Shown here: in pieces, positions 33,612 to 53,597 of the stretch
Numbering within the stretch: the first letter of the stretch is position 1
Layout: each line of letters starts with the position of its first letter
Source: Spirochaetia bacterium
Lineage (GTDB): Bacteria > Spirochaetota > Spirochaetia > DSM-16054 > Sediminispirochaetaceae
Length of the DNA: 64,000 bases
Assembly: GCA_034520965.1 (NCBI GenBank)
Contig: JAXHMY010000001.1
Coordinates: 800,001-864,000 of the forward strand
Direction: 5' to 3'
The notes under the pieces: generated by a model
Seen by the model: only the letters and a program-made list of their open reading frames with translations
The model's database searches: none
Told to the model about the DNA's origin: nothing
Translations under genes and position numbers: made by a program

Positions 33612-35006
33612 ATGCAACTGCGGAACCTGATTCCTAATTCAATTTTTATGTACATTCTTATTCCAGTAGCCGGAGCGGCAGTAGTGAGTGCCCTGCTGTT
33701 CAACCTGCTGTTGACCCCCGTGTTCATCAATCATTTTACCCGCAGGAGCACTGCGGATCTCGAGTTGGCTACCTCCCTGGGGCTCGAACACTGCGAGGAA
33801 AACTTCCTCAACCTCTTATCCCTGCGTTTAAGCGATGACCAGATGATGGTGGAAACTATGTACCAGGAGAGCCTGAGAGGCATTACCCAGATACATAAAC
33901 AGATGGCATCGGTTCATATGCTGGCGGTAAGCAGCAGCGGCAGGGTCGACGCCAGTACTTATCCCGAACTGCCGACGGGGTCAGATTTTAAAGTCCCTGA
34001 TTTTTGGAGTGGAGAAACCCGAGAACTAAGGGTAAAAGGACAAAAGATACTGTACCGCTCGGCCTATTTTCCCTTTTGGCGGGTGCATATTGTTGCCGTC
34101 GTACCCCTCGAGTTTATATCGGCTCCCGTACAGCTGATGCAGCAGGGACTTCTGATAGCCCTGGTTGCAATCAGTTTTATTCTATTACTCACCCTGCTGA
34201 TAACCCTGAACTATGCGGTCAAACGTCCCTTGAACCGAGTAATCACAGCAACCCGGGAAATCAGCCGGGGCGCTTTTCCCTATATTGAATCAGTACGGAA
34301 GGATGAAATCGGCGAGGTCTGCACCGCCATAAACGTGATGTCCCGTCAGTTGAAAGAGAACCATACCGCCCTTGAACGCTCGATAGCCGAGAAGAACGTG
34401 CTGCTTCAGGAAATTCACCACCGGGTGAAAGACAACTTGAATGTGGTGGTGAGCCTGCTGCACCTGCAGTCCGACCAGGTCGAAAACCACCGACAGGCGA
34501 AAGAGGTTTTGAACAGCAGCTGCGACCGAATATACTCAATGGCCCTGGTGCATGAAAAGCTGTACCAATCCGAAAGCTTTTCCCATATTGATCTCGAAGC
34601 CTATATACAATCAATTGCCGATCAGTTGTTCAGTATTTACGGACAAAACAAAGCGATAGATAAAATAATCCGTGGCCGCCACATTTTTATAGATTTGTCG
34701 GTAGCCATGCCCTGCGGTCTGATTCTGAATGAACTTATTACTAATTCACTGCTGCATGCCTTCCCGAATCAAAACTCCGGGAAAATCGAAATAATCGTCG
34801 AGGAACAGGCCGAAGGGAATCTGGTACTAACCTATTCCGATAACGGCATCGGAATTAAGCAGGAACCTGATTTTTCCACACCACAGACAACTCTAGGACT
34901 CAGTTTAATTCATATTTTGGGTCAGCAGTTAGGCGCCAAGGTCGAGCTGAATACCCATCACGGGTACTGGCTGCGGCTAAGGATACCCCGACAGGGGACA
35001 GTATAA
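33612..35006 (+). CDS. HisKA_2-type sensor histidine kinase with HAMP
   Basis: EIHHRVKDNL, ALVHEKLY, LNELITNS, DNGIG. Confidence 0.9.
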   Translation: MQLRNLIPNSIFMYILIPVAGAAVVSALLFNLLLTPVFINHFTRRSTADLELATSLGLEHCEENFLNLLSLRLSDDQMMVETMYQESLRGITQIHKQMASVHMLAVSSSGRVDASTYPELPTGSDFKVPDFWSGETRELRVKGQKILYRSAYFPFWRVHIVAVVPLEFISAPVQLMQQGLLIALVAISFILLLTLLITLNYAVKRPLNRVITATREISRGAFPYIESVRKDEIGEVCTAINVMSRQLKENHTALERSIAEKNVLLQEIHHRVKDNLNVVVSLLHLQSDQVENHRQAKEVLNSSCDRIYSMALVHEKLYQSESFSHIDLEAYIQSIADQLFSIYGQNKAIDKIIRGRHIFIDLSVAMPCGLILNELITNSLLHAFPNQNSGKIEIIVEEQAEGNLVLTYSDNGIGIKQEPDFSTPQTTLGLSLIHILGQQLGAKVELNTHHGYWLRLRIPRQGTV

Positions 35007-35204
35007 GTAGCCGTTACTGCGCGATTGTGAATCAAAATATCCATATATAATACCAACTTCAAAATCTAAAAATGTATATTCCGGTAAAACCGGACAGCTG
35101 TGATATGACGACAGTGGATTTCCTACGATGGCGGTTCTCAAGGATCTCAAGCAGGGAAAGCCGTGCGGTATCTGATTGATAAACCAACTAACATCCCAGG
35201 CAGA

Positions 35205-35684
35205 TCATGCCTCTGGATCAGTACTGTCGAGAATCTTCATCTCAAAATGCCACCCCTCAAATACCTCAAGCATCATAACAAACTCTTCAATCGTTATACG
35301 CTTTCCATCTATGAAGAAGGCCCGTTCAAAATCGGTGTCAGAATCTTTTTCACTCCAGTCAATTCTTCCACGTAGAAGAAAGTTATCATTGATTTGCCAT
35401 CTTCCGTTCGATTTTTCCAGATGTCTTCTGTTTATGCCTCTTTTAATTTTTTCCTTTAGAAATTGCTCGGCCTTCGCAGTGTCTGCATCAAAATCAGATA
35501 ATACGGTAAATCTGTAAGATAGCGATTCATCATTCTTCACTTCTATAGCCTCAGAAAGAAGACCGCCAGGGCATGGAAATGTCGAAATTCTGAAGAGGTA
35601 TTCATGTTTCCAGCGGTCTTTTATCCGAAAGTCGTATCCTTCATCGAGGGTGCTGTGGATGTAGTGGTCACCTTCTAATCTCAT
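35205..35684 (-). CDS. Hypothetical protein
   Basis: 159-aa ORF with AAAGGAG RBS; no recognised motif. Confidence 0.6.
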   Translation of the reverse strand: MRLEGDHYIHSTLDEGYDFRIKDRWKHEYLFRISTFPCPGGLLSEAIEVKNDESLSYRFTVLSDFDADTAKAEQFLKEKIKRGINRRHLEKSNGRWQINDNFLLRGRIDWSEKDSDTDFERAFFIDGKRITIEEFVMMLEVFEGWHFEMKILDSTDPEA

Positions 35685-35857
35685 TTGTTTTTCTCCTTTA
35701 GATATTTTCTACACTCGTTAATTGGGTGCCATCTTCTATTATGGCCCCAATTGTTACTGGAGGTATTTATATCGGCAGTACCGCACCATCTTCTGGTTTC
35801 ATTTTCTTAAGATCCCCGCGCCCCACCGCCGGAGCACAGGACGTGCGGAGGCGGTTC

Positions 35858-38185
35858 TTAGGCTGCCGGATTTACATATAAGTATCTCTGGAACGCAATA
35901 AAGGTCACTTTTATCTCTTCTATTCCGCCAAGCTTCTCTGCCGCATCTGTGATTGAATAGTATTTCAAGGAGAGCAGGTCGGGCAGTTTTTCCTGATCGA
36001 GTTCGTCTACGCCGGATTCGATATATTTGGAGAGAACGAAATCAAGAAAATCCTTCTGATCTTGATTTAACCCGTTAAAAATAAACGGCCTGGCTTGTGC
36101 AACCCGTTCTTCCCGGCTCATGGGTTTTACTGCGAATGAGACATACTCAAGCACATCAAAGATATCGCTGTTTTCTGCGTTTACAAGTTTCTGTAGAATA
36201 GACAACTCATCTTTACCGTACCCCGATTCTTTAAGACTTTCGAGTAATCCCTTTCTTGTAGACGGTACAGACCAGATTTTTCGCAGTTCATCTTCATCCT
36301 TGAAAAAATCAGGCAGCTTGCCAAAGAGGTTTTGCAAGAACTCCTCTGCAGAAATGGGCTTACCGTCGGCACTCCAGAATGAGGTGGCTATCATATGCTG
36401 GATTTCCCGTTCTTTTCCGTCTCTCAGTTTGATTTTCAGCTTTTTCGGACGCTTTGTTTCTTCAGACTCTTCCGGATCACCCGGTTCTTCTTTTACCTCT
36501 GAAGGTTCTTTCGGTTCCGGCAGTGAATAGGGTTCCGGTTCCAGGGGCTCACCGTCCCATTCCGGATCGAGAAAGTGATGGTACGCGCCGACATAGTCGT
36601 ACAGGGTAAAATAGTCTTTGCCTTCAAACAGGCGGGTGCCTCTTCCGATAATCTGTTTGAATTCGATCATGGAGTTTACCGGTCTCAAAAGTACGATGTT
36701 CCTGATGTTCCTTGCGTCAACACCGGTGGAAAGTTTCTGGGATGTCGTCAGTACTGTAGGAATACTTTTTTCATTGTCCTGAAAATCCCGAAGGTGCTGC
36801 TCGCCAAGCTTTCCGTCATTGGCGGTAACCCGGTGACAGTAATTGGGATTATTGCTTTGCTTGTGCTGGTTTATCAAATCACGAATAGCCAGGGCATGTT
36901 CCTGATTGGCACAGAACACGAGTGTTTTTTCTTTTTGGTTTATTTCATCAAGGATAATTTTTACCCGCTTTTCTTCACGTTCTTTTATCTGAATAATTCG
37001 ATTAAAGTCCTCTTCACCATACACCCGGCCTTCTTCAACCTCCCCCTCCACTACCGTATCATCCGGGGTAAAGACGTATTCATCGATGGTCGTCTGTACC
37101 CGTTTTACCTTGAAAGGAGTAAGAAAGCCGTCATTTATCCCCTCTTTTAATGAGTAGATATAGACCGGCTCGCCAAAATAGGCATAGGTGTCAGCGTTAT
37201 TCTTCCGTTTCGGGGTGGCGGTTAAGCCAAGCTGAACAGCAGGAGAGAAATACTCCATGATTCCCCGCCAGTTGCTTTCATCATTTGCTCCGCCCCGATG
37301 ACACTCGTCAATAATGATAAAATCGAAATAGTCGCGCGGATATTCTCCGAAATTGGGAGCCGGGTCTCCATTTTCATCCCTGCCGCTCATGAAGGTTTGA
37401 AATATGGTAAAGAAGATGTTTCCGTTAGTCGGCACGCGCCCTTTTTTTCGAATTGCATCCGGGGCAATACGTACAAGGGCGTCTTCAGGAAAAGCGTTAA
37501 AGGCATTGAAGGCCTGGTTGGCCAGAATATTCCTGTCTGCGAGAAAGAGTATCCGCGGCCGCCTTGATCCGTCTTTTTTCAGATTCCAGCGGGTATGGAA
37601 GAGCTTCCACGCAATCTGAAAGGCGATAAAGGTTTTCCCCGTGCCGGTAGCCAGGGTAAGCAGAATTCTGTTTTTATCTTCTGCAATAGCATCGAGTGCC
37701 CGATGTACCGCTATCTCCTGATAGAAGCGGGGCGGTTGTGTACCGCTTTTGTCTTCAAAGGGTATGCCGTAAAAGGCGTCCCGCCATTTATTTTGCTCCT
37801 CATGCGCCATAGCCCACAGCGCTTTGGGGGTGGGGAATGTATCAGCCGAGCCTTCTTCTCCGGTTTTCATATTTATGCAGTAGATTTCGCGGCCATTGGC
37901 TGCATAGGCAAAATCAAGTTTCAATTTCTCTGCGTATAGTTTGGCCTGGGCAACCCCTTCACCGACTTCGCGCTCTGCGCTTTTGGCTTCTATGACGGCG
38001 AGCTTAACGTTTTTATAGGAGAGGATGTAATCGGCAATAAGAGGTTTACTTCTGATGCCGCCGGTCTGAATTTTACCGTGGGTAATAGTATACTCACGGT
38101 TGATTTTCGATTCGCTGGTACTACCCCAGCCGCACGAAAGCAGATGCGGATCGATCAACTCGGCCCTGGTTTCAGCTTCGTTCAT
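35858..38185 (-). CDS. hsdR: Type I restriction endonuclease subunit R (EcoAI/EcoEI-like)
   Basis: VIEAK, LATGTGKT, DECHR, GLTATP, QIIGRGTR. Confidence 0.95.
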   Translation of the reverse strand: MNEAETRAELIDPHLLSCGWGSTSESKINREYTITHGKIQTGGIRSKPLIADYILSYKNVKLAVIEAKSAEREVGEGVAQAKLYAEKLKLDFAYAANGREIYCINMKTGEEGSADTFPTPKALWAMAHEEQNKWRDAFYGIPFEDKSGTQPPRFYQEIAVHRALDAIAEDKNRILLTLATGTGKTFIAFQIAWKLFHTRWNLKKDGSRRPRILFLADRNILANQAFNAFNAFPEDALVRIAPDAIRKKGRVPTNGNIFFTIFQTFMSGRDENGDPAPNFGEYPRDYFDFIIIDECHRGGANDESNWRGIMEYFSPAVQLGLTATPKRKNNADTYAYFGEPVYIYSLKEGINDGFLTPFKVKRVQTTIDEYVFTPDDTVVEGEVEEGRVYGEEDFNRIIQIKEREEKRVKIILDEINQKEKTLVFCANQEHALAIRDLINQHKQSNNPNYCHRVTANDGKLGEQHLRDFQDNEKSIPTVLTTSQKLSTGVDARNIRNIVLLRPVNSMIEFKQIIGRGTRLFEGKDYFTLYDYVGAYHHFLDPEWDGEPLEPEPYSLPEPKEPSEVKEEPGDPEESEETKRPKKLKIKLRDGKEREIQHMIATSFWSADGKPISAEEFLQNLFGKLPDFFKDEDELRKIWSVPSTRKGLLESLKESGYGKDELSILQKLVNAENSDIFDVLEYVSFAVKPMSREERVAQARPFIFNGLNQDQKDFLDFVLSKYIESGVDELDQEKLPDLLSLKYYSITDAAEKLGGIEEIKVTFIAFQRYLYVNPAA

Positions 38186-38196
38186 TGCCTTGGTCC

Positions 38197-38256
38197 TTTA
38201 CAGGCTCATTTACAGGCTCATTTAGGGTCTCATTTACAGGCTCATTTAGGGGCTCA
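38197..38256. repeat. 12-bp tandem repeat x5 (TTTACAGGCTCA-like)
   Basis: Three perfect and two variant copies between rhuM and hsdR. Confidence 0.9.
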
Positions 38257-38269
38257 ATTCGAGCAGCTG

Positions 38270-39292
38270 TCATTGTTTATACCTTTTAAGATACTCTTCA
38301 AGTTTCTTAATATCTTCTTTATCGGCCTTCTTAGCTTCTTCTATTTTTCTTTTTTTATCAAACTGCTCATACCGCTCTTCTGCAAGTTTTTTGGCAACTA
38401 CCGCTTTTACCTTTCCGGCATGGGTAAGTAGTTCCTGTTCGTTGAACTCCAGAAAGGCATCCAGTTTATCCGACCACTGCTCCATGGTGACGGTTTTTCG
38501 CTGCCTGGCCTGCAGTTCGGCGTAATCGAGGTACATGGTGACAATCTCGTTGAGGTCTTTTATCTCACCTGCCTTCAGGTAATTCTTGGCAATATCCACA
38601 TCATATTTTCGCACGATGGAACCTCGCCAGGAGGTAAGTCCCATATTGGGAGCCCACTGGTCGCTTCGTAATTCGATGAGCTCGGCGGCGGTTTTGCCGG
38701 TGACAGCCCAGAGCATCTTGTTCTGAACCTTCTTGAAGAAGTTCTGTGCCTGCTGTGAGTTTTTATCGTAATCGATGGCCGTGGCATAAATATCCCGGAT
38801 TTTCTGGTAAAAGCGTTTTTCCGAAGCCCGGATATCCCGAATACGCTCCAACCACTCGTCAAAATAGTCCCACCGGTCGGCCTGTTTCAGGCGTTCATCA
38901 TCCATGGCAAAGCCCTTGATGATGTATTCTTTGAGGATATTGGTTGCCCAGATACGAAACTGGGTGGCCCGTTTGGAGTTGACCCGATATCCGACGGCAA
39001 TGATGGCGTCGAGGTTGTAGTATTTTAACTGCTTTGTCTGGTTTTTTCCCTCTATGGCGCCGTGGGAAGTGGTATGTTCCAAAATGGAACTTACCACTTG
39101 TTCGTCCAACTCACCGCTTTCAAAGATGTTTTTCAGATGCTTGGTAACAGCCGGCCGTTTTACACCAAAAAGCTCCGCCATCTGCGCCTGGGTCAGCCAG
39201 ATGGTTTCGTTCTGGAAAACAGTATCTATTTTGATATTGCCGTCGGTGGTTTTGTAGAGAATGATTTCTGTTTGGTAGGAGGGTTGGGTCAT
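38270..39292 (-). CDS. RhuM-family (Virulence_RhuM) DNA-binding protein
   Basis: ETIWLTQAQMAELF, YNLDAIIAVGYRVNS..ATQFRIWA, IRDIRASEKRFY. Confidence 0.9.
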   Translation of the reverse strand: MTQPSYQTEIILYKTTDGNIKIDTVFQNETIWLTQAQMAELFGVKRPAVTKHLKNIFESGELDEQVVSSILEHTTSHGAIEGKNQTKQLKYYNLDAIIAVGYRVNSKRATQFRIWATNILKEYIIKGFAMDDERLKQADRWDYFDEWLERIRDIRASEKRFYQKIRDIYATAIDYDKNSQQAQNFFKKVQNKMLWAVTGKTAAELIELRSDQWAPNMGLTSWRGSIVRKYDVDIAKNYLKAGEIKDLNEIVTMYLDYAELQARQRKTVTMEQWSDKLDAFLEFNEQELLTHAGKVKAVVAKKLAEERYEQFDKKRKIEEAKKADKEDIKKLEEYLKRYKQ

Positions 39293-40542
39293 AATTCCCC
39301 CTCGAAGGCTTTTTTGAGAATGGATTTTTTTAGTTCGTCCAGAGCTGTTATTTTATCATTGTATATTTTTTTTAATTTAGATGTTTCTTTTGAAAAATAA
39401 TATACTTTTTTGATCAATTCATTTTGTGTTTTCTTGCTTGGTAGTTTTAACCTGATTTTTTTCAAAGTTTTTACTGACGATACATTCTTAATAGCTGCTC
39501 CTTGAGAGTGTTTTGCAATTTGATTTAGAAAGTCATTACTTTCCATCCATAGCTTTAAGAAACGAACCGAAAGAACTATTTTTGGGTGTTAATTTAGTAG
39601 AGCTTGATTTATTATACCTTTATGGAAGGTCTCTGGAACAATTGCTGTCCTGCCCATAGTTCCTGAGCAACTCATAATCAAATCGCCAGCTTTTAGCTCA
39701 AAGCGTCTCATCTCATTGTATTTTTTTTCATCAATAAAATATCTAATATTTACAAATTGATCATTTATCGCATGTTGCTGTTCATAAACAGCATAACCGG
39801 AGGATTTGAATATTGTTTTTTTTAAGCTGCCTCCAAACGGACCTCTTACAAACTCACAAACATCCCCCAGCTTCTTCGCCTCCCAATCCTCTCCGGGATT
39901 TTCAAAGATACCGTTCAAATAACTCTCAAACAGCTCCTTGGCATTGTCCAGATTCTTCTCCGCGTTGGCCTTCGCCTTGTCTATGGCTGCAAATGCTTCA
40001 TCGAGAATAGCGACAATGCGTTTTTGTTCAGCGAGTGGGGGAAGGGGAATTTGAATTGCTTTTATCTGATCTCTATTTATTGAATTAAAAACTGCTCCAT
40101 TATTTCCTGTTATTTCATTCTTATGTTTAACAAGAAAGTAAAACAGAAAGAACTTATCTACTGTATTTCTAGCCCTTATTGCTGACAAGCCACGTCCAAT
40201 ACAGATATTTTGTGTAGCAAAATTAACAGGTCCCACAGGTGCTCGAACAGACATCAGTATATCATCTTTTTGTGCTTCTTTTGTTATGTTTGTTGTCCAA
40301 GTATTGGGACTATCAATAAACTTTTCTGTGAATCCTTTTTTCCCTTGATAAAAAGGCAATCCATCTCCATTTTTATTATAAAACTTACTTTTGGGAGATT
40401 GTCCTGATATTACCTCACACACCTCCCCCAGCTTCTTCCACTCCCACCCCTCCGGCAGGGGCTTATTTTTTCCCACCGTCGGTATTTTATCCGCATCCAA
40501 CTGTGTTAATCCGTGGTTTGTATATGCCTCTGTCCTATTCAT
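39289..40542 (-). CDS. hsdS: Type I R-M specificity subunit, frameshift near 39590
   Basis: LPEGWEWKKLGEV, PLPPLAEQKRIV, LKKSILKKAFEGEL; two TRDs. Confidence 0.9.
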
Positions 40543-41617
40543 AATCCTGCTCTGTTTTTTTTGCTTCGTACAAACTGAGCCGTTCGCTGACTATCCATTT
40601 TTCCCGATCCAGTTCTTCTTGCAACTCCTGTTCGCTGGGGAGTACGGTTCTGTATTTAGAAGCAAAAAGATGCTTGTTTTCCTGTAGAACAGAATATTTT
40701 ACGATCGTCTCATCCTTGTCCGTGCAGAGGATTATACCTATTGTCGGGTTGTCATCATCACCCCTTTTCAGTTCATCGAACATTCGTACATACATATCCA
40801 TCTGCCCAATATCCTGGTGAGTCAATTTACCCGTTTTTAGATCGATAATCACGAAACACTTGAGGATATAGTTATAGAAAACAAGATCAACATAAAAATG
40901 GGAAGTCTCGCTGCTTATACGGAATTGCCGGGCTATAAAAGAAAATCCTTTGCCAAGTTCAAGGAGGAACTTCTGCATATTCTCTATCAAAGCACTCTCC
41001 AACAATCTCTCTTTGCCGCTCAGGTCCTCCGGAATACCGAGGAATTCCAGCACATAGGGATCTTTGATATGAGATAGTTTCCCGTCGGCTTCTTTGTCCA
41101 CTGTATTTTTACCCGATGATTGATTTGACAGGAGCCTCTCGAAGTAGCGGCTTTTAATATTTCGCTGCAAGGTTCGTACGCTCCAGCTTTCCCGTCGGGA
41201 CTCTGTCAGATAGAATTCCTTTGCCCTTTCATCATTAATCCGCATGATAAGTCTGATATGGGACCAGCTCAATTCTCTACACAGTGTGTAGAATTTTTGA
41301 TTTTCACGAAAAACCAGGTAGAACTGGCGAAAATTCTTCAAATTCGCAATAGAAAACCCCCTACCAATGGTATCGCCAAGGTACTTTGACAGTTCGGTAA
41401 TCAAATACTCCCCATAACCTGCACGACCTTTACCCTGCTGTTCCTGCTCTACAATTCTTTTGCCAATTTCCCAATAGGTCTCGACCATAACAGAGTTGAT
41501 CTTTCTATACGCGCTTTCCCGGGCAACAATCAGCAAGTGCTTAATATCCCGGTAGAACAGATCTTCACTTTCTTTTGTCACCAACTTCTCCCCGAATGAT
41601 TTTCTTTCACATAACAT
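40535..41617 (-). CDS. YhcG/DUF1016 PD-(D/E)xK nuclease-domain protein
   Basis: YWEIG, LSWSH, IKDPYVLEFL, FLLELGKGF, DIGQMDMY, PTIGIILC. Confidence 0.9.
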   Translation of the reverse strand: MLCERKSFGEKLVTKESEDLFYRDIKHLLIVARESAYRKINSVMVETYWEIGKRIVEQEQQGKGRAGYGEYLITELSKYLGDTIGRGFSIANLKNFRQFYLVFRENQKFYTLCRELSWSHIRLIMRINDERAKEFYLTESRRESWSVRTLQRNIKSRYFERLLSNQSSGKNTVDKEADGKLSHIKDPYVLEFLGIPEDLSGKERLLESALIENMQKFLLELGKGFSFIARQFRISSETSHFYVDLVFYNYILKCFVIIDLKTGKLTHQDIGQMDMYVRMFDELKRGDDDNPTIGIILCTDKDETIVKYSVLQENKHLFASKYRTVLPSEQELQEELDREKWIVSERLSLYEAKKTEQDYE

Positions 41618-41720
41618 TATCAGCCCCTCATATTACCAAAAGCCCAATTGTGCTACACAGTGTGTAGCGTTTTCATAGAACTTATGTTAAACTATCGCAT
41701 TTTTTGCGACAGTTCGATTA

Positions 41721-43175
41721 TCATACCAACTCCCGCACCTTCTTCAAAACCTCGGCGCTCTCCTTATCCAGCGCGGCTATCTCATTCAGTATCTCCTGCG
41801 GATCCCGCAATACAGTGTCGTCCTTTTTATTTGGGTTTTTAACCGATAGGTCGAAGGTCTCTTCGTTCACATCATTTATATCGAGGCTCCAGGAATTGTC
41901 CGAGTCGGCCTGTATCTTCTGCAGCTCTACAAACTCGGCAAGATCCTGCTCGTTCAGTGGATTGGTTTTGCCCAGGTTCCGTCCTGGGTTGAGCTGGTAG
42001 TACCATATCTTTTTGGTCGGTTCACCCTTTTCAAAAAAGAGTACCACAGTCTTCACCCCGGCTCCCTGGAACACGCCGCCGGGAAGATCAAGCACGGTAT
42101 GCAGATTACAGCTTTCCAGAAGGGTCTTGCGCAGGGATATGGAGGCGTTGTCGGTGTTGGAAAGGAATGTGTTTTTAATAACCACACCGGCTCTGCCGCC
42201 GGCTTTGAGTCTCTTGATGAAGTGCTGAAGAAAAAGAAAGGCTGTTTCACCTGTTTTTATAGGGAAATTCTGCTGAACCTCCTTGCGCTCTTTCCCACCG
42301 AACGGAGGATTTGCCAGAATTACATTGAAACGGTCTTTTTCCTGTATGTCGCTGATATTCTCCGAGAGGGTATTGGTGTGGATGATATTCGGCGCCTCGA
42401 TACCGTGGAGGATCATATTCATGGTACCGATAATATAGGCCAGTGATTTTTTCTCTTTGCCGTAAAAAGTCTTCTTTTGCAAGGTTTTCATGTTGCCGGT
42501 AGAAAGATTCTTTTCGCTTCTTAAATACTCAAAGGCTTCACAAAGAAAGCCCGCTGACCCGGCCGCACCGTCATAGATGGTTTCTCCGATTTCCGGCTTC
42601 ACCACTTTAACAATGGTTCTTATAAGCGGCCGTGGAGTATAGTATTCTCCGCCGTTGCGGCCGGCGTTCCCCATGTTCTGAATCTTGCCCTCATACAGGT
42701 GGCTCATCTCATGCTTTTCTTTCTGGCTTCTGAATCGCAGTTCGTCAACCAGATTAATAATTTCCCGCAGGTTGTAACCGCTCTGTATCTTGTTTTTTAG
42801 CTCACTGAAAATCTCACCAATCTTGTATTCGATGGTGTCCGGATTATCTGCCTGGGTTTTGAAACTCCGTAAATAGGGAAAAAGTTTCTGGTCGACAAAA
42901 TCCCGCAGATCATCACCGGTCAAAGCCTTATGATGGTCAAGTTTCCCTTCTTTCGTTTTGGGGGCCGCCCATACATTCCATTTGTACTCGTCTGCAATGA
43001 TAGATGAATATGATTTTGATGAAAGCCTGGCCGCAGCTTCCTTGTCCTTCTCAAGGTCATCGAGGTATTTCAGAAAAAGAACCCAGGAGGTCTGTTCCAC
43101 ATAATCCAGCTCACTGGAACATCCGGCATCTTTCCAGAGGGTGTCGTCGATATTCTTAAAGGTCTGTTCAAACAT
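41721..43175 (-). CDS. hsdM: Type I R-M N6-adenine methyltransferase
   Basis: GEYYTPR, DGAAGSAGFL, NPPF. Confidence 0.95.
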   Translation of the reverse strand: MFEQTFKNIDDTLWKDAGCSSELDYVEQTSWVLFLKYLDDLEKDKEAAARLSSKSYSSIIADEYKWNVWAAPKTKEGKLDHHKALTGDDLRDFVDQKLFPYLRSFKTQADNPDTIEYKIGEIFSELKNKIQSGYNLREIINLVDELRFRSQKEKHEMSHLYEGKIQNMGNAGRNGGEYYTPRPLIRTIVKVVKPEIGETIYDGAAGSAGFLCEAFEYLRSEKNLSTGNMKTLQKKTFYGKEKKSLAYIIGTMNMILHGIEAPNIIHTNTLSENISDIQEKDRFNVILANPPFGGKERKEVQQNFPIKTGETAFLFLQHFIKRLKAGGRAGVVIKNTFLSNTDNASISLRKTLLESCNLHTVLDLPGGVFQGAGVKTVVLFFEKGEPTKKIWYYQLNPGRNLGKTNPLNEQDLAEFVELQKIQADSDNSWSLDINDVNEETFDLSVKNPNKKDDTVLRDPQEILNEIAALDKESAEVLKKVRELV

Positions 43176-43232
43176 ATTCTTTACTCATTCCTTTCTTTTT
43201 TCTCTGCCATGGACTTGGTGCGGTATTGCCTT

Positions 43233-43319
43233 TAACTTCCCGCGAGTACCCGAAGTTGGCGACCGACGGGAACCAATTTGGGCGAAGGCCGAATGGCCGT
43301 AGTCAGATACTCGCTGTTA
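43233..43319 (-). repeat. attC-like site 1
   Basis: TAAC-ttccc-GCGAGTA...TACTCGC-t-GTTA. Confidence 0.85.
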
Positions 43320-43329
43320 TCTGCTGTGC

Positions 43330-43589
43330 CTATTTTTTCCATTCTGCATAATGATCTGTGTATGTATCTAAAACTTTACGAATCATTTGTTGATATGGAA
43401 TATGTGTTTCTTCCGAGATTCGTTTGAAGAAATCAATGCTTTTTTTTGAAAGTGAGATGGTTACCTTCTTTGTCTCTTCTTTTGGTATTAACAACTCTGG
43501 TGGGGGAGTACATTTTCAATCTCGTTAGCTTCTAACAATGCTTCTCGTATGTCTTCCGGTGCCTCTTCATATTTAAAATTTTTCTTCAT
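43330..43589 (-). CDS. CopG/BrnA-like antitoxin, homopolymer frameshift; absent from ORF track
   Basis: Hand translation MKKNFKYEEAP...VLP/PPELL..KKVTISLSKKSIDFFK...IPYQQMIRKVLD. Confidence 0.7.
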
Positions 43590-43849
43590 ACCGCTGTTTT
43601 CCTTCACGCCAATATCCGGCGCCAACCAATCTTATAGCATTCTTTCGTATTGTAAACCTTACAGTGACGATTCCAGATTCAATTTTCCCAATACAAAAGA
43701 ACCTATCTTCATCGATACTATGCTTTTTATCTTCTAAAATTATCCTTTTAGAATCTAAAAAAGCAAATTGTGCTTCTTCGAATGAGATATTGTGTTTCTC
43801 TTTGTTAAGTACATTCTTATTCTCATCCCATATAAAGGCTCATAGACAT
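43573..43849 (-). CDS. BrnT-family toxin, frameshift just after start; absent from ORF track
   Basis: Hand translation FIWDENKNVLNKEKHNISFEEAQFAF.D...HSIDEDRF..IG. Confidence 0.75.
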
Positions 43850-43896
43850 ACACGACCTACTAACGACATTATATACAAGAAAATGGGCATTGCAGA

Positions 43897-43980
43897 CAGA
43901 CGTCTGCGAGTACCCGGAGTTGGCGAATGCAGAATGTGCCGAAGGCCAAGGCCGAAGCTCGCCGCATATACGCCCTGTTA
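43897..43980 (-). repeat. attC-like site 2, degenerate and chimeric
   Basis: Left core CAGAC instead of TAAC; the two halves resemble different site subtypes. Confidence 0.7.
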
Positions 43981-43996
43981 TCGGAAGTTTGGACGA

Positions 43997-44290
43997 TCAC
44001 GAGACTTTCATCCTTTGGATTCCACTCAATTCATCTCCAATTTTTGACCGCTCTTCTTCAAGATCATAATCATCTTGAAGCCCCAACCAGAATTGTGCAG
44101 AATTGCCAAAAAACTCAGAAAGCCTCAAGGCTGTATCTGCTGTTATTCTGCGTCGGCCTTGTAGTATCTGTGAAATTCGTGTTTGTGGTATTTTTATTTC
44201 TTTTGCTAACCTGTATGCAGTAATACCAAATGGTTCAAGAAATTCTTCCTGTAATATTTCTCCCGGGTGTATATTTCGTAACCTATCCAT
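43997..44290 (-). CDS. higA: HigA antitoxin
   Basis: IHPGEILQEEFL, ITADTALRL..FFG.SAQFWLGLQ. Confidence 0.92.
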   Translation of the reverse strand: MDRLRNIHPGEILQEEFLEPFGITAYRLAKEIKIPQTRISQILQGRRRITADTALRLSEFFGNSAQFWLGLQDDYDLEEERSKIGDELSGIQRMKVS

Positions 44291-44302
44291 AATTATCTCC
44301 TA

Positions 44303-44584
44303 TTAATGGTAATCCACAATTTCTACGTTCAATGCATTTCCATTTTGCCATTGAAAACATATCCTCCATTGTGAATTGATTCTAATGCTGTAAAGCCCTT
44401 CTCTGTCTCCTTTTAAGGATTCCAATCTATTATTGGGAGGAATCCTTAAATCATTAAGATCTTGTGCATTGTTCAACATTCTCAGTTTTTTTCTGGCTGG
44501 ATTTTGAATATCTATTGGTAGCTTCAATGATGTATTTCCATTCCAGATCTTTTCTGTTTCTTTAGATCTGAATCCGATGATCAT
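44303..44584 (-). CDS. higB: HigB toxin
   Basis: DLRIPPNNRLESLKGDR.G.YSIRINSQWRICF. Confidence 0.92.
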   Translation of the reverse strand: MIIGFRSKETEKIWNGNTSLKLPIDIQNPARKKLRMLNNAQDLNDLRIPPNNRLESLKGDREGLYSIRINSQWRICFQWQNGNALNVEIVDYH

Positions 44585-44661
44585 ACTTAGAATACTAACG
44601 GCTTGTGATAGTATTGTCAAGTAATATTATCGTAATCATTGCTTCGTCCGAATTTCCGAAG

Positions 44662-44746
44662 TAACGTTTTGCCGTGTAGCCGAAAGTTGGCGACCAATGA
44701 GAGCCAATTTTGGCGGAGCATAGCGGAGGCCGGGTACTCGTTGTTA
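44662..44746 (-). repeat. attC-like site 3
   Basis: TAAC...GTTA; vapC stop codon in the core. Confidence 0.8.
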
Positions 44747-45157
44747 TGTGATGTTTGGCTCAACAATCCAGTTTTCAATTTTTATTTCCGGTACCCTTTC
44801 GAATTCCTTTACATTATTTGTAACTATGCAAAGGTCTCTTGAAATACATTGAGCTGCTATCTGTAGATCGTATGGACCTATTGGTGTTCCTTTTTTATTC
44901 AAATGAACCCTAAGAAATCCAAAATTTTCGCAATCCTTTTCTGAAAAAGGAATTATTTCAAAAGGAGTAAGAAACTCCAATAATGTATCTCTATTATTCT
45001 TTGGATAGAAGCTTTTGGCAATTCCATATTCCAGTTCTGCTACAGTAACTGCAGATATGGCAATATTAAAGGTGTCCTTTTCTAAAACTTTTTCAATTAA
45101 AGTAGGATACTTCTTTTTTATTAAGTAGATGCATATGTTGGTATCAAGAAGATACAT
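44744..45157 (-). CDS. vapC: VapC PIN toxin
   Basis: YLLDTNICI, IGPYDLQIAA, VTNNVKEFER. Confidence 0.92.
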   Translation of the reverse strand: MYLLDTNICIYLIKKKYPTLIEKVLEKDTFNIAISAVTVAELEYGIAKSFYPKNNRDTLLEFLTPFEIIPFSEKDCENFGFLRVHLNKKGTPIGPYDLQIAAQCISRDLCIVTNNVKEFERVPEIKIENWIVEPNIT

Positions 45158-45387
45158 TAGAAAAAATCCCTTTCCTGCTGTTCCGGTTGTTCTCTTCCAT
45201 TTTTAAAAACATCATCAGAAAACTTATCCAGACTTTCTTCAAATGTTCTCCACAAGTCGTCTTTTGATGTGAGAATAATTGATTTGCCAACTTTTTGAAT
45301 ATATAGTTCTTTCTCATCAATAAAAAATTCTTTGGGTATACGTATAGCTTGGCTGTTTCCGCTTTTAAATACTTTAACCGTTTGCAT
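45157..45387 (-). CDS. vapB: VapB (AbrB-fold) antitoxin
   Basis: KVFKSGNSQAIRIPKEF. Confidence 0.9.
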   Translation of the reverse strand: MQTVKVFKSGNSQAIRIPKEFFIDEKELYIQKVGKSIILTSKDDLWRTFEESLDKFSDDVFKNGREQPEQQERDFF

Positions 45388-45449
45388 ATTGTCCTCCTTC
45401 ATAGAGGTATATACTTGTGTGTATACATTGTCAAGAGCCAAATATCACG

Positions 45450-45537
45450 TAACGTTCCCGGGGTTTATGACATTTGCCCGCAGGGCAAATGTGCCAAAGG
45501 CCAAGGAGCGGTGCAACGCCGCATATACCCCGTGTTA
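45450..45537 (-). repeat. attC-like site 4 (subtype shared with site 19)
   Basis: TAAC-gttcc-CGGGGT...ACCCCG-t-GTTA, inner ATTTGCCC-GCA-GGGCAAAT. Confidence 0.85.
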
Positions 45538-45554
45538 TTCGCTGTTTTTATTCT

Positions 45555-45869
45555 TTAGTATGCTTTGTCTCTTTGTTCCATGGACGTTATAGAAACTATT
45601 TGTATTGAGTCATCAATGATATAAAAAACTCGATAATCTCCTACCCGATAGCGCCAAGTTTCAGGAGACCAATTTCGAAGTTTTTTAATGTTTTTTCCAT
45701 AATACGGATTAACACGTAATTGGGGATAAACATAATTATGAATTTTCTGATATCTAGAATCAGTTTCCTTAATCCTGAGTCTCTTTAAATCCTTAAGGAA
45801 CTGATCAGTTTCAAAGATTTTAAATAAATCAGGCAAATCGGCCTCTACCTTTTGAGGCATCAATCGCAC
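45555..45869 (-). CDS. RelE/ParE-family toxin; true start probably near 45837
   Basis: NIKKL....ETWRYRVGDYRVFY.ID. Confidence 0.85.
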   Translation of the reverse strand: MRLMPQKVEADLPDLFKIFETDQFLKDLKRLRIKETDSRYQKIHNYVYPQLRVNPYYGKNIKKLRNWSPETWRYRVGDYRVFYIIDDSIQIVSITSMEQRDKAY

Positions 45870-46068
45870 CTTGTTTTAAGCGATCAACCAATTCTGGGTT
45901 ACCTGAAATGCTTTCCATTTCGAATTCATCAACATAGTCAACTTCATCTATATATCGCTTGGTAGCAGTTTCGATGAAGTTTGAAATAGATCGATTTTCT
46001 GCTGCAGCATGAATCTTCAGAGATTGATATAATGTGTTATCTACCCTTAATGAAATAGTTTTAGACAT
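45829..46068 (-). CDS. Ribbon-helix-helix antitoxin
   Basis: KTISLRVD...AAAENRSISNFIE. Confidence 0.8.
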   Translation of the reverse strand: MSKTISLRVDNTLYQSLKIHAAAENRSISNFIETATKRYIDEVDYVDEFEMESISGNPELVDRLKQGAIDASKGRGRFA

Positions 46069-46150
46069 AGTTAACCTCCGTATACAATGTATTCTTATGT
46101 AATTAATTTAATTCAAAAAAGAAAAAAATGTCAAGAATAAAAATAACGCA

Positions 46151-46237
46151 TAACGTTTCGCGAGTACCCGAAGTTGGCGACCAACGGGAACCAATTTGGG
46201 CGAAGGCCGAATGGCCGGAGCCGGGTACTCGCTGTTA
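46151..46237 (-). repeat. attC-like site 5
   Basis: TAAC-gtttc-GCGAGTACCCG...CGGGTACTCGC-t-GTTA. Confidence 0.9.
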
Positions 46238-46265
46238 TCGGAAGGTTTTGGTGGTTCATTTCAAC

Positions 46266-46660
46266 TTACATAAGCGCTATCTTAATCTTCTTTCCTAAAG
46301 CCTTTGCTACTTTTTCTATTGTTGATAGTTTAATATCCTCCGAATGATTTTCCATCCTCGATATAACACTTTTTGTTGTATTAATTCTATTTGCTAACTC
46401 TTCACCGGATATTCCTTCATTTTTTATTCTTTTATCTACGTAATCATTGAGATTCATGTTTTTTCCTCCTAAAATAGTCTGTCTTATAAGTTTCAGCTTT
46501 TTTTATTTCATTTCGAGATGTCTTTTGTGTTTTCTTAATAATTCCAAGTGTTATTACAATCAGATTATTCTTAACCCAAAAACTGAACAACCTGTAAATG
46601 TTTGTATTAACCTTTATTCTTACTTCCCAAATTCCATCAGTTGATGCCAATTTCTTCTAT
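46266..46660 (-). pseudogene. Decayed copy of the Gp49/RelE-like toxin + XRE-HTH cassette
   Basis: Near-identical to 51655-52276; toxin 5' part missing, HTH has an 81-bp in-frame deletion. Confidence 0.85.
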
Positions 46661-46709
46661 TATTGATTTGTTCTTTTCTGTGTGTTCTGTGCATTTCGTG
46701 GTTCTTTCT

Positions 46710-47315
46710 TCACAGCTCATCGGTCTTAAATTCGCTGTAGCCTTCATAGAAATAGCTGACATCGATGCCTTTCATAAACAGGGAGTGGTCATCAATCTGA
46801 TCGGTCAATGCGCTTTTTAACAGTTCTTTGATTTCCACATCTTTGACCGGACTGCGCTCCATGGCAGACAGGTATTCCTCTTTATCGACCTGGTTCCAGT
46901 CGATGACCTTCCGAATCTCTTTTTTCAGGATGAGATCTAACCAGATGCGGGTAGCGCGGCCGTTACCTTCCCGAAAGGGATGGGCAATGTTCATCTCGAC
47001 ATATTTTTCGATTATCTCATCAAAGTTGCTCTGCGGCATGGTCTCGATGTGTTTGAGCGAGTGTTCCAGATACATAATCGGCGCAAAACGGAAATTGCCT
47101 TTGGTGATATTCACGTCACGGATACTGCCGGCAAAATCATAAATCTCACCAAACAGATAGGTATGAATGAAGGCCAGTCCTTTAAAGGTGCCGACATTTA
47201 CTTGTTGAATGTCGCCCGACTCAAACAGTTGCTTGGCTTTTTGTTTGCTGATCTTTTCTTCGGCTTTGGCCAGCTCAATTTGATCGGTGATGCCCAGTTT
47301 GTTTTCCAGAATCAT
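46710..47315 (-). CDS. fic: Fic-domain AMPylase (class III, NmFic-like)
   Basis: [13 protein letters not shown]-terminal SYFYEG inhibitory motif. Confidence 0.9.
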
Positions 47316-47331
47316 ATCTTACCTTTTTTTT

Positions 47332-47409
47332 TAACTACGGAATACACAGAATACACTAAAAGCTTTTTAATAAAACTCTTCTTCCGTGTTTTCAATGTGT
47401 TCTGTGGTT
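47332..47409. repeat. Second-family AAC...GTT palindromic element with 9-bp periodic arms; half copy at 46677-46703
   Basis: AACTACGGAATACACAGAATACAC...GTGTTTTCAATGTGTTCTGTGGTT. Confidence 0.7.
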
Positions 47410-47411
47410 TA

Positions 47412-47663
47412 CTATTCTTCTTTCTCATGCGTCACCGCCTTTTTTACGGCTCTCTTTTTTGGCCTGTTTTCCAGTGCGGCGATGGTTTCAAGGTAGTCTT
47501 TTTCCACGTTTACCAGCGTTTTTCCTTTGGGAGTCTGAAAGAGCTTGACAATCTGACCCTGGGTCAGGTAGATGGGTTCGTTCTGCAGGATAGTGTCTAC
47601 TTTTATATCACCTTCAGGAGTTGTGTAGACGATTATTTGGTATTGTTTAGACTCTTTCTTCAT
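47412..47663 (-). pseudogene. Internally deleted RhuM-like gene
   Basis: N-terminus aligns with 38270-39292 (IIVYTTPEGDIKVDTILQNEPIYLTQ vs IILYKTTDGNIKIDTVFQNETIWLTQ). Confidence 0.7.
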
Positions 47664-47701
47664 GCTATTTTTCTCCCATCATCTTGGTGCGGTATTGCCT
47701 A

Positions 47702-47783
47702 TAACGTTCCGCGTGTAGCCAAAGTTGGCGCCCAACGGGAGCCTATTTTGGCGGAGCATAGCGGAACCAGCTATTTGCTGTTA
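47702..47783 (-). repeat. attC-like site 6
   Basis: TAAC...GTTA with the shared AAGTTGGC...CAACGGGAGCC interior. Confidence 0.8.
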
Positions 47784-47804
47784 TCGGTAGTATTTTCAAT
47801 TCTG

Positions 47805-48023
47805 TTACGCTTCTTTAATAATATCCTCAAATGAATGGAATTTTACTTTTCCTTTACTTTCAAGGGTTTCATATTTTTTTATCTCTTCCCTGTCAATAAT
47901 ATCTTCATACATATCATTCAACGATGTTTTTATTACAGTTGATTTATCTTTTTCTAAATAGTCAGTCAGAAAGAAAAGCATCTTTTCCTCTTCTTCGGTT
48001 AGTCTTATTGATACAACACTCAT
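47805..48023 (-). CDS. RHH (DUF6290-like) antitoxin
   Basis: SVVSIRLTEEE...KSTVIK; overlaps toxin stop. Confidence 0.7.
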   Translation of the reverse strand: MSVVSIRLTEEEEKMLFFLTDYLEKDKSTVIKTSLNDMYEDIIDREEIKKYETLESKGKVKFHSFEDIIKEA

Positions 48024-48298
48024 TTATACACATCCTCCCTCTTGGAGATTTTTACTACGATAATATCATCTTCCTGGAAATAAAATATTGCTCGATATTT
48101 TCCTTTCCTTAATCTAAAATACTCACGTAATTCTGATCCTTGCAATCTTTTAATATCAAATAGGGTCAAATCTTTTGTGAGTTCTAGTGATTGAAAAGCA
48201 TGGTGCATATGCTCAAATATGTGCTTTGGAATCAATCCTCTTTTATATGCTTTTAAAACAGCATTTTCATATTTGATCATGTAAACATTGTAATACAA
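48020..48298 (-). CDS. RelE-like toxin
   Basis: DIKRLQG....YFRLRKGKYRAIF...REDVYK. Confidence 0.8.
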   Translation of the reverse strand: MYYNVYMIKYENAVLKAYKRGLIPKHIFEHMHHAFQSLELTKDLTLFDIKRLQGSELREYFRLRKGKYRAIFYFQEDDIIVVKISKREDVYK

Positions 48299-48337
48299 AG
48301 TGTGAGTTTTATCAAGAAATCTTGAAAATATTTCCGA

Positions 48338-48424
48338 TAACGTTCCGCGGCTATGCGAAGTTGGCGACCAACGGGAGCCAATTTGGGCGGAGGCTGAAGG
48401 GCCGTAGCCGGGTACTCGCTGTTA
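48338..48424 (-). repeat. attC-like site 7
   Basis: TAAC...GTTA; left arm GCGGCTATGCG mismatches right arm. Confidence 0.8.
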
Positions 48425-48441
48425 TGTGATGTATCGTGATA

Positions 48442-48735
48442 CTATGAAGCTTTAACATGTGGGATCTTCTCTAATTCCTGTGCTATATGCTTCTTTTCTT
48501 CGCGTAAATCATACTCATCTTGTATCCCGAGCCAAAAATCCGCTGAATTACCAAAGTACTTGGAAAAGCGTAGGGCCGTATCAGCGGTGATCCTGCGATT
48601 GCCTTTAATAATTTGTGATATCCTCGTTGCCGGGACATTCGTATCCTTTGCCAGCCTGTAAGCTGTTATATTCATTGGTTTAAGAAACTCTTCCAATAAA
48701 ATTTCTCCCGGTGTAATTGTTGGTATCTTTTCCAT
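48442..48735 (-). CDS. higA: HigA antitoxin, second paralogue
   Basis: TPGEILLEEFL, ITADTALRF..YFG. Confidence 0.92.
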   Translation of the reverse strand: MEKIPTITPGEILLEEFLKPMNITAYRLAKDTNVPATRISQIIKGNRRITADTALRFSKYFGNSADFWLGIQDEYDLREEKKHIAQELEKIPHVKAS

Positions 48736-48749
48736 GCTTTTACCCTCAG

Positions 48750-49031
48750 TTAATGATAATCTGTAATCTCAACTTCACTTGCAGCTCCATTATTCCAGTT
48801 GAAGCAGATCCTCCATTGATTATTTATTCTAATACTATATTGTCCTTTCCTATTCCCTGCTAATTGCTCCAATCTATTGCCAGGAGGGACCCTCAAATCG
48901 TTTAAATCTTTTGCTCTGTGCAATACAATCAGCTTCCTTAATGCAACTTTTTGCATTTCTTTGGGAAATCTCTTTGAATAGATTTCTTCCCATATTTTTT
49001 CGGTAGCCTTATCTTTGAATGATTCGATCAC
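48750..49031 (-). CDS. higB: HigB toxin, second paralogue
   Basis: DLRVPPGNRLE.L.G.RKGQYSIRIN.QWRICF. Confidence 0.92.
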   Translation of the reverse strand: MIESFKDKATEKIWEEIYSKRFPKEMQKVALRKLIVLHRAKDLNDLRVPPGNRLEQLAGNRKGQYSIRINNQWRICFNWNNGAASEVEITDYH

Positions 49032-49099
49032 AACTTATATTAACCTATAACGTTAATAATGTAAAACGTTAATATTTCTTTCTATCTCGATATATAACA

Positions 49100-49186
49100 T
49101 AACGTCCCGCGAGTACCCGAAGTTGGCGAACAACGGGAGCCAATTTGAGCGGAGGCCGAAGGGCCGTAGCCGGGTACTCGCTGTTA
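49100..49186 (-). repeat. attC-like site 8
   Basis: TAAC-gtccc-GCGAGTACCCG...CGGGTACTCGC-t-GTTA. Confidence 0.9.
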
Positions 49187-49249
49187 AGCGACGGGCCAAG
49201 CTCATCTATATATGTATCTACATTGCCGCACTCTTCATTAAAGACATTA

Positions 49250-50023
49250 TTATTCCTTGATTGCTCTGGTTGCAATAAAAGAGTTAATATACGAATCTAA
49301 CAGATCTCCACCAGAAGAGTCTTCATAGAATCCTTTAATGGTAAATCCAACATCAATCTGACCGCCGATTTGATCCTGTAATGAATGTCCGAATTCTAGT
49401 GTTTCCTTATTCGCAATCCTTAATTCCAGTTGTTCTTTCGGAAGGTGTTCTAAATCAGAATACGGAATCCTATGTCTTACTGTAAGATTTTGATTAACAT
49501 CCCATTCATGCATATCAAAAATATATGTTATTGGGTTTCCAAAGCCTGCTAATAATGGTCCGCCTTTCTTTAGAACTCTATAACACTCTTTCCATACTTT
49601 ATTTACGTCGTCTATGAAGCAATTTGATACTGGATGAAATATCAAATCAAAACTATCATCAGCAAACCTCGATAAATCACGCATATCTCCTTGTTCAATT
49701 GCAATTGACAATCTTTCTCTTGCCGCAACCATCTTGTCTCTTTCGAGTTGATACGGGCTATTGTCAAGCACTGTTACTTCTGCCCCTGTGGCTGCTGCTA
49801 AAACTGGTCCTTGTTGTCCACCACCTGATGCTAAACATAGTATTTTCTTTCCATCAAGTTTTGGAAACCAATCTGAAGGTACAGGTTTGGTTGGTGTAAG
49901 TACGACACTCCATTTCCCCTTTCTGGCTTCCTCTATTTGTTGTGAATTTACAGGTTTGGTCCAAATATTCCCATCTTCGACCTGCTTATTCCACGCCTCA
50001 CGATTGTGATCCAGTATTTCCAT
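49250..50023 (-). CDS. Class I SAM-dependent methyltransferase cassette
   Basis: ILCLASGGGQQ, GDMRDL..F.D.SFDLI. Confidence 0.88.
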   Translation of the reverse strand: MEILDHNREAWNKQVEDGNIWTKPVNSQQIEEARKGKWSVVLTPTKPVPSDWFPKLDGKKILCLASGGGQQGPVLAAATGAEVTVLDNSPYQLERDKMVAARERLSIAIEQGDMRDLSRFADDSFDLIFHPVSNCFIDDVNKVWKECYRVLKKGGPLLAGFGNPITYIFDMHEWDVNQNLTVRHRIPYSDLEHLPKEQLELRIANKETLEFGHSLQDQIGGQIDVGFTIKGFYEDSSGGDLLDSYINSFIATRAIKE

Positions 50024-50116
50024 AGATAATATCTCCTCGTTAATTTAAACTAAATGAAAAGAACTGTTCTATAAATTTCGATGTGAAGCCGGACTTATCA
50101 AGTATGGGCTATCGCC

Positions 50117-50200
50117 TAACGTTACAGAAATATACGAAGTCCGGCTACGCCGCATTTGCCGAAGGCCAAGCCCGTAGGGCGCAGCGCATATTTCTTGTTA
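50117..50200 (-). repeat. attC-like site 9
   Basis: TAAC-gttac-AGAAATAT...ATATTTCT-t-GTTA. Confidence 0.8.
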
Positions 50201-50209
50201 TAAGACGTA

Positions 50210-50497: not shown

Positions 50498-50507
50498 ATT
50501 GATCTCC

Positions 50508-50768
50508 TTACGTTAAGGGCTCCATCCGATGGATTTCTCCATGTTGTTTTGCGGAATTTCAATTTTGTAAAAGCTCATTTTCATGTAATTCACACCATGC
50601 TAAAACTAGTTTTAATTGTCTAGATGGCAAAGAACCCTTGATAACAACTGCATCATTTATTGACACAAGAGCTTTTTCATTGCCCTATTGAGCATGGAAA
50701 TGAGGAGGTGTATGATCATCCCAATACATATAAATTTTTATTCCGAAAAACTCGCATACTAATGGCAT
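50508..50768 (-). pseudogene. DUF4160 protein (putative toxin) with two in-frame stops
   Basis: MPLVCEFFGIKIYMYWDDHTPPHFHAQ*G...LLQN*NS; TAG 50685-50687, TGA 50559-50561. Confidence 0.85.
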
Positions 50769-53587: not shown

Positions 53588-53597
53588 AAAGATCCTC

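Follow-up and report, generated by a model that had tools for sequence, protein, structure and literature searches.

The window, a stretch of 64,000 nucleotides (nt) from a Spirochaetia bacterium (G000:C1:800001-864000, G000 being the 3.35-Mb source genome), contains a type I restriction-modification (R-M) operon at the far end of an integron-like cassette array. The five genes and their flanks form a 7.5-kb unit (35770-43235), which very probably entered the array as a single gene cassette and has since lost its own attC site. All three type I components are present (PADLOC MTase_I, Specificity_I and REase_I), and hsdM and hsdR are both intact. The in-frame stop in hsdS (TAA after codon 317) sits among A runs and may reflect decay or an assembly error; none of the listed contigs covers it. 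The genes, in amino acids (aa) and open reading frames (ORFs), and the ends of the unit are:

43233-43319, minus strand: last attC-type site of the array, the end of the preceding 582-bp cassette
43176-43235, minus strand: shortened cassette leader of the hsd unit, by comparison with the leaders of relatives G003 and G085
43216-43230, plus strand: leader 15-mer, the outer inverted-repeat arm
41721-43175, minus strand: hsdM, type I methyltransferase, 484 aa, NPPF motif present
40535-41617, minus strand: yhcG, DUF1016 nuclease-domain gene (PADLOC PDC-S02), 360 aa
39289-40542, minus strand: hsdS, with the in-frame TAA at 39589-39591 giving ORFs of 317 and 85 aa
38270-39292, minus strand: rhuM-family gene (PADLOC PDC-S05), 340 aa
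35858-38185, minus strand: hsdR, EcoEI-like type I restriction subunit, 775 aa
35770-35860, minus strand: conserved cassette tail, from the hsdR stop codon, ending two bases short of a complete AAC core
35825-35855, plus strand: tail hairpin A, with a GGA-containing loop on the plus (bottom) strand
35805-35824, plus strand: inner inverted-repeat arm of the tail, with a partner in full-length leaders and not in this copy's
35774-35788, plus strand: 14/15 inverted partner of the leader 15-mer, outer arm, 70 nt beyond the hsdR stop
35205-35769, minus strand: unrelated sequence in the place of the attC, with a hairpin at about 35720-35752 and a DUF7686/DUF7713 gene (35205-35684)

On the minus strand the unit starts at GTTAAAG (43236-43230), and the ATG of hsdM follows 61 nt on. 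The crossover predicted within the attC-type site at 43233-43319, between the G and the TT (43236/43235), coincides with this start. No internal att site was found in 35770-43233 by the hidden Markov model (HMM) of the array sites or by a hairpin scan, both of which can overlook divergent sites. A preliminary description of this DNA, made from the letters alone, had given the order hsdM-yhcG-hsdS-rhuM-hsdR, co-oriented with the array and beginning at its site 1, and all of these coordinates check. We add that site 1 (43233-43319) is the most distal attC, farthest from the integrase, and thus the operon occupies the oldest position of the array. Between rhuM and hsdR (38182-38259) there are at least five 12-bp tandem repeats, which recur upstream of hsdR in G009 and at a gene start in G015.

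The array and a second copy of the leader are placed as follows:

43233-62942, minus strand: cassette array in the window, with 20 attC-type sites, one attI-like site and mostly toxin-antitoxin cargo
47664-47705, minus strand: second short leader, heading a chimeric cassette

The array runs past the end of the window to a co-oriented recombinase gene (G000:C1:864849-865922), which lies about 40 nt from an attI-like GTTA and encodes a tyrosine recombinase domain (PF00589 at G000:C1:864903-865340, E 1.8e-38). The attC-type sites are 77-130 nt long, end in TAAC or CAAC and GTTA, and have the conserved AAC and GTT triplets and complementary arms described for canonical attC sites of 57-141 bp (PMC5027507). 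In seven of 12 sites the longest perfect stem is separated from AAC by 1 nt and from GTT by 5 nt. This asymmetry of the spacer departs from canonical sites, which have an unpaired central spacer of 5-6 nt in each arm and extrahelical G/T bases near L''. The recombinase has an N-terminal extension, aligns to VchIntIA in two pieces and to IntI4 in a split alignment, and has a Xer-like length before patch III, with 24 residues separating its K..K.R motif from the LF. Similar arrays in other Spirochaetia are headed by homologs: these were identified in seven of 40 relatives, and in two of the seven short loci (G017, G019) our hairpin-based detector called attC-type sites just downstream on the same strand.

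The two ends of the hsd unit carry the outer arms. The preliminary description had reported a 14/15 inverted partner of the leader 15-mer, and it was found as stated, the sole mismatch being G35778.T43226 on the plus strand. At one mismatch or fewer the 15-mer occurs at three places in 3.35 Mb (43216, 47685 and 35774), so it is not a common genomic repeat, which would have undermined the match; the copy at 47685, absent from the preliminary description, is exact and heads another cassette. The probability of such a partner by chance, which that description had left to be estimated, is 8.6e-6 when only this 15-mer and 200 nt near the hsdR stop are considered. It rises to about 3e-4 when every 15-mer within the first 41 leader bases may match in 300 nt, the generous estimate resting on seven background matches in 6.7 Mb (both strands). 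Cassettes of the array generally show about 16 nt of end complementarity past their GTTA/TAAC cores. Among 21 intervals, all 17 that pair at 10 or more of the 16 positions carry a G.T at position 7 (plus = bottom strand), and the four poorly paired ones include the chimera at 46234-47705. The mismatch of the hsd pair is at this same position 7; the preliminary description had noted a plus-strand G.T as in the small cassettes. In the well-paired intervals among the cassette ends from 43316 to 64811 the G.T at position 7 is fixed, and it is possibly a recognition feature of the non-canonical recombinase.

At the distal end, neither the array HMM nor the hairpin scan found an attC. The hairpin at about 35720-35752 was considered as a worn attC and rejected: it folds (z -2.9) but has no GTT core. 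Thus both the missing att site and the hairpin (given as 35721-35751) of the preliminary description were borne out by the scans and by folding. A 901-nt query over 401 genomes of the class matched 22, many of them only at 35770-35860, and those relatives run from the tail into ATAAC and an attC, where the window switches to unrelated DNA. All 12 GTDB matches to the tail pattern, from which the core was left out, go on into ATAAC. Each of the 21 distinct tails that reach the end of the model has the AAC, and for 12 of them a complete attC was called by our detector, a crude hairpin rule that gave no match on 1,200 shuffled flanks and failed on sites visible by eye (L146, L152, L138). Redundant loci were scored once (L049/L129/L153, L052/L148 and L131/L143).

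Public contigs were examined from four runs (X1, X2, X4 and X8; X1 is possibly the source sample). One X1 contig covers 35560-35811 with zero differences, and thus the truncation is not unique to one assembly. Three X4 contigs match the tail from exactly 35770, where they have an attC-like loose end, and a single X4 contig has a joint between 43317 and 35770. Contigs of each of the four runs depart from the tail at 35853-35860, the stop codon, into differing sequences. Homologs of the DUF7686 gene occur in three of 300 other genomes, at about 30% identity. A search for an empty distal site found that the same-genus G004 keeps the flanking kinase gene and nothing of 34990-35770.

Related hsd loci have the ends that are missing or shortened here. 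The relatives with sequence in common include Spirochaetaceae and Spirochaetales. In G085, a member of another family, an attC is followed by the leader, hsdM (95%), another hsdS, a RAYT-like gene (which scores under its family cut-off), rhuM (92%), hsdR (93%), the tail and AAC; from GTT to AAC this unit is 7,028 bp, and its two ends are those of the window unit. An HsdR of 88% identity (L052/L148) leads into the tail and then into a complete attC, with the bottom-strand fold as expected (z -3.1), which answers the question raised beforehand of an intact att site after hsdR in relatives. In G003 an attC and a HigAB cassette precede hsdM (97.5%), which has a long leader, and in G015 hsdM stands behind a GTT leader that comes after a collapsed attC-like remnant. 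The hsdM units of G085, G003 and G015 share the GTT start of the window unit. In runs X2, X4 and X8 the short hsdM leader is joined to the attC of the HigAB cassette, without the 582-bp cassette. Upstream cassettes therefore differ among G000, G003, G085 and these runs, a difference that movement of the neighbours could explain too.

Relatives carrying the locus outside arrays, with different boundaries, would speak against a captured cassette. On boundaries the preliminary description holds, as the closest relatives (93-95%) keep both ends; the more distant HsdR homologs (63-78%) mostly have no attC after them. We thus read the capture as specific to particular lineages, in an R-M family that, judged from its flanks, usually lies outside arrays and is usually no cassette. 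Other loci of this family have features of their own. L049:1100-4360 holds a 3.2-kb three-gene Thoeris cassette (TIR, ThsA, ThsB), which has a full attC site on either side and lies immediately upstream of the hsd cassette. L107 has a short, classical-looking attC just past the stop of a 65% hsdR homolog, likely an independent capture. At L126:7000-12500 a type I operon (HsdR 71%) stands behind an attC-like site and has different inverted end repeats (G-run/C-run), which suggests a second, unrelated frame.

The ends of the hsd unit are common to many unrelated large cassettes. This shared frame, and the shortening of its leader here, were both absent from the preliminary description. A full leader (110 nt) consists of the GTT core, the outer arm, an extended -10-like motif (TGnTAnAA/T; 14 of the 18 leaders have it), an inner arm of 21 nt, hairpin B and a ribosome site. 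The tail (94 nt) opens with the stop codon and hairpin A; the complement of the inner arm follows, then 13-16 nt, and the outer arm and AAC close it. The leader in the window matches that of G003 minus the part between two 9-nt repeats; its promoter-like motif, inner arm and most of hairpin B were likely deleted between these repeats, with the outer arm kept. The inner arm was found at two or fewer mismatches in 26 of the 401 class genomes, against one match for a reversed control, and with at most three matches per genome. This survey consisted of one 20-nt pattern and the one 901-nt query, both of which divergent frames escape. By title, the GTDB tail matches belong to Spirochaetia, Bacillota, Ignavibacteria, Thermodesulfobacteriota, Bacteroidales, Chitinispirillaceae and Leptospirales; the sources are bins with some short contigs, and misbinning is possible. 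No match was found in PLSDB plasmids (tail query) or in viral contigs (one exact pattern).

Framed units span 2.4-10 kb, and their cargo is unrelated and mostly for defence. Those with both ends present are:

7,028, 8,325 and 10,029 bp: type I R-M
5,478 bp: QatABCD
about 5.1 kb: Dcm-Vsr
2,959 bp: SIR2-HerA
2,442 and 2,665 bp: PDC-S06 (RloC-like, a label of our own)
2,924 bp: ABC transporter on the opposite strand, the sole non-defence case

One-ended cases add further type I subfamilies, a type III Res, Lamassu with Ppl, a type II pair, PD-Lambda-2 and a weak HamB match. Hairpin A begins -2 to +8 nt from the stop of a long ORF in 15 of 26 tails, some of these genes being homologous; of the other 11 tails, four are 13-67 nt from a stop, six have no such stop and one sits at a contig edge. 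Inner arms pair better within units than when shuffled (215 versus 202.8, p 0.004, n 13), a p value that is overstated because the pairs are related.

Several framed or frame-adjacent ORFs have no PADLOC or NCBIfam match at the thresholds used (L137:7628-9406, L137:2951-5026, L134:59-1336, L139:16955-18046, L194:14055-15398 and L146:7519-8004) and are candidates for undescribed defence genes. A sequence resembling a group II intron 3' end replaces the first leader bases at the same point in L137 (G108:C3) and L138 (G045:C90). Rfam searches of L049, L001 and L136 identified no relevant family; the only matches were to the end of a group II intron, in L136, and, weakly and under the cut-off, to a snoRNA. 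The leader hairpin matches CANGGANG in 15 of 18 cases and the tail hairpin in four of 23, and csrA is present in G000; we do not claim control of the frame by CsrA because the motif is antisense to the cargo.

As the same leader and tail run from attC to attC in relatives, the operon is likely a single cassette, and the proposal of the preliminary description, a five-gene defence operon captured as a cassette and later immobilised, is supported by the relatives' intact ends and shared boundaries. A non-canonical integron recombinase would have inserted the operon as a circle at the GTT crossover, and later insertions would have shifted it to the distal end. A deletion would have taken the attC from two bases inside the AAC core; with its own attC lost, the cassette is predicted to be stuck. 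A second deletion would have removed the promoter-like motif and the inner arm of the leader, and because that motif is lost expression would rely on read-through.

Several results weigh against this account. The recombinase scores 155 bits where the TIGR02249 cut-off is 265, and the IntI-specific insertion near patch III is absent (compared with 2A3V); the system is thus integron-like, yet it failed one test of IntI membership, and its action on the array sites is presumed from position. Cassettes end in AAC and an attC, and here the tail halts at ...GATA. The site at 43233-43319 has an unconstrained fold without an R-box hairpin (z -1.1). The outer arms show no covariation (162 versus 162.4, p 0.62, n 11), and the wobbles of the inner arms pick neither strand (18 G.T top, 13 bottom). 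Among relatives, the attC of G085 breaks off after a few bases and its unit is also terminal in its array; damaged attCs occur in several large relatives (G085, G123 and the type II unit of G108); and in G009, where the upstream end lies off the contig, a 93% HsdR beside parE/parC is followed by a worn tail but by no attC. In metagenomes, 71 of 80 HsdR homolog loci were examined; 11 had too little flank, and only two of the 60 scorable ones have an attC-like hairpin within 200 nt of the stop, one of them a 65% homolog whose short site is of a different type. We saw no excision, circle or empty site for the hsd cassette; the X4 joint comes from a single contig, has 31 nt on one side and would be explained just as well by an intact linear relative.

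We regard it as improbable that the frame represents the ends of non-autonomous transposons (MITE- or REP-like, mobilised by an HUH/RAYT or other transposase) that prefer att sites, with the integron recombinase not the mover. Substrates of HUH transposases have inverted repeats and hairpins with loop motifs on one strand, and the inner inverted repeats and two same-strand loop-motif hairpins of the frame recall them. The RAYT-like gene inside the G085 cassette, albeit under its family cut-off, and the tails without attC in G009, G030 and G096 point the same way. Yet leaders begin at the GTT of an attC, tails finish at AAC and an attC, and the outer arm carries the position-7 G.T found throughout the array. 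Nor is any transposase common to the framed units, and the inner arm occurs once in G000 at one mismatch, with two four-mismatch matches elsewhere that have no frame; the lack of frame matches in plasmids and viral contigs also argues against such a transposon. Unlike MITEs or composite transposons, the units have att cores as ends and one tail hairpin in G000; no separate search for target duplications was made.

Still less probable is that the 7.5-kb unit never moved whole and arose by fusion in place of two framed cassettes, one contributing the leader and the other the tail. The chimeric cassette at 46234-47705 is a precedent for fusion in this array. As the frame is shared, matching ends alone do not prove a common origin, and internal genes vary among homologs (yhcG here, the RAYT-like gene in G085, different hsdS). 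Against fusion, hsdM and hsdR have the same two ends in G085, a member of a different family, at 95% and 93% identity, and the same frame encloses two more complete type I operons, of 8.3 and 10.0 kb.

An ordinary defence island abutting the array end, with the 15-mer matched by chance, would suit the missing attC after hsdR and the 58 of 60 homologs without an attC-like hairpin there, but it is extremely improbable given the chance value of 1e-5 to 3e-4, the homology of the 91-nt tail to cassette tails that run into attC, and the two ends common to the closest homologs, whose intact ends already contradict it.

Entry as a single cassette raises the question of how so long a unit moves. Excision falls with length, so that a long unit needs help or moves rarely: it drops from 1.5 kb in some site pairs (PMC5371416), and excision of a 4-kb interval was not recovered in a further study (bioRxiv 10.64898/2026.03.17.712381), as far as these accounts go. 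The mechanism we favour, at slightly less than even odds, is a pairing of the two ends through the nested arms on single-stranded DNA, with a leader that gives the long operon its own promoter. End pairing would lengthen the attC stem in the circle, bring the flanking sites together and offset the length penalty on excision. The frame may instead act at the RNA level, or solely in cassette formation. More hesitantly, we suggest a class of operon-sized cassettes built on a reusable frame with a promoter leader and end-pairing repeats, and served by a recombinase without the IntI insertion. As the tail joins unrelated genes at their stop codons, the frame would in that reading be the footprint of a mechanism that turns whole defence operons into cassettes, and it would move them across phyla without being noticed in standard integron searches.

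Other features were noted in and around the array. In the chimeric cassette (46234-47705) the frame leader, a rhuM fragment and fic are joined to the 3' portion of a toxin-antitoxin cassette (gp49-HTH) of which there are two full copies (51623-52353 and 62129-62859). At 50826-50895 an attI-like GGGAGTTA replaces an attC in mid-array, adjoined by an 11-bp hairpin whose loop has the GGA motif of the frame hairpins. Two cassettes are interrupted, at 56199-57400 and 58694-59524, by a transposase-like ORF on the plus strand (labelled from its sequence, with no Pfam or NCBIfam match) and by an IS110 gene. Two isolated, worn attC-like sites lie outside the array (G000:C9, about 45710-45793, and C7, about 162513-162615).

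The array resembles sedentary chromosomal integrons in its co-oriented, toxin-antitoxin-rich cassettes, its palindromic AAC...GTT sites, its defence cargo and the adjoining tyrosine recombinase. It differs in the size of the five-gene hsd unit (7.5 kb) and of the framed family (2.4-10 kb), and in the conserved 110-nt leader and 94-nt tail that lie outside the attC. The largest known cassettes are about 2 kb according to Cury et al. (2016, PMC4889954), the same account giving 4 kb as the default clustering distance of IntegronFinder; framed units above 4 kb exceed this distance, and surveys therefore could not count most of them. As far as the text of Darracq et al. goes (bioRxiv 10.1101/2024.07.02.601686), integron defence systems never have more than two components. 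We found no published account of large or type I R-M cassettes or of shared cassette ends in a partial coverage of the literature, and the supplements of Darracq et al. may list type I systems.

The Treponema integrons described by Wu et al. (2013, PMC3607928) are, by description, similar in their spirochaete host, their recombinase co-oriented with the cassettes and attC sites of 77-130 nt, and we group with them the reverse-orientation Spirochaetota IntIs of Ghaly et al. (2022, PMC9668308). Wu et al. cite three genes as the reported maximum between two attC sites, unlike the five here. The recombinase shares with IntI (VchIntIA, PDB 2A3V; the integron-like subgroup in the classification of Smyshlyaev et al., 2021, PMC8138268) the tyrosine recombinase fold and a similar C-terminus, and differs in lacking the IntI-specific insertion and in being Xer-like before patch III. 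The operon itself is like EcoEI/EcoAI-like type I systems in its HsdM, HsdS and HsdR (with an EcoEI_R_C domain) and its nested PDC-S02 and PDC-S05 genes, and unlike them in being packaged between cassette ends, with hsdS interrupted in this assembly.

The prevailing view is that cassettes are small and that integron defence systems have been pared down to a gene or two. The framed cassettes described here carry entire type I, II and III R-M operons, Qat and SIR2-HerA, in units reaching 10 kb. This suggests that part of the cassette size limit stems from the 4-kb detection window and an IntI-only definition. The way cassettes form is described as 'largely unknown' (PMC5371416). A fixed frame that meets many unrelated genes at stop codons offers defined junctions and arms, with which the formation of cassettes and the excision of long ones can be tested, and the frame provides a search key for new defence genes. 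Set beside these known systems, the hsd unit is likely an oversized, now immobilised defence cassette of a framed family.

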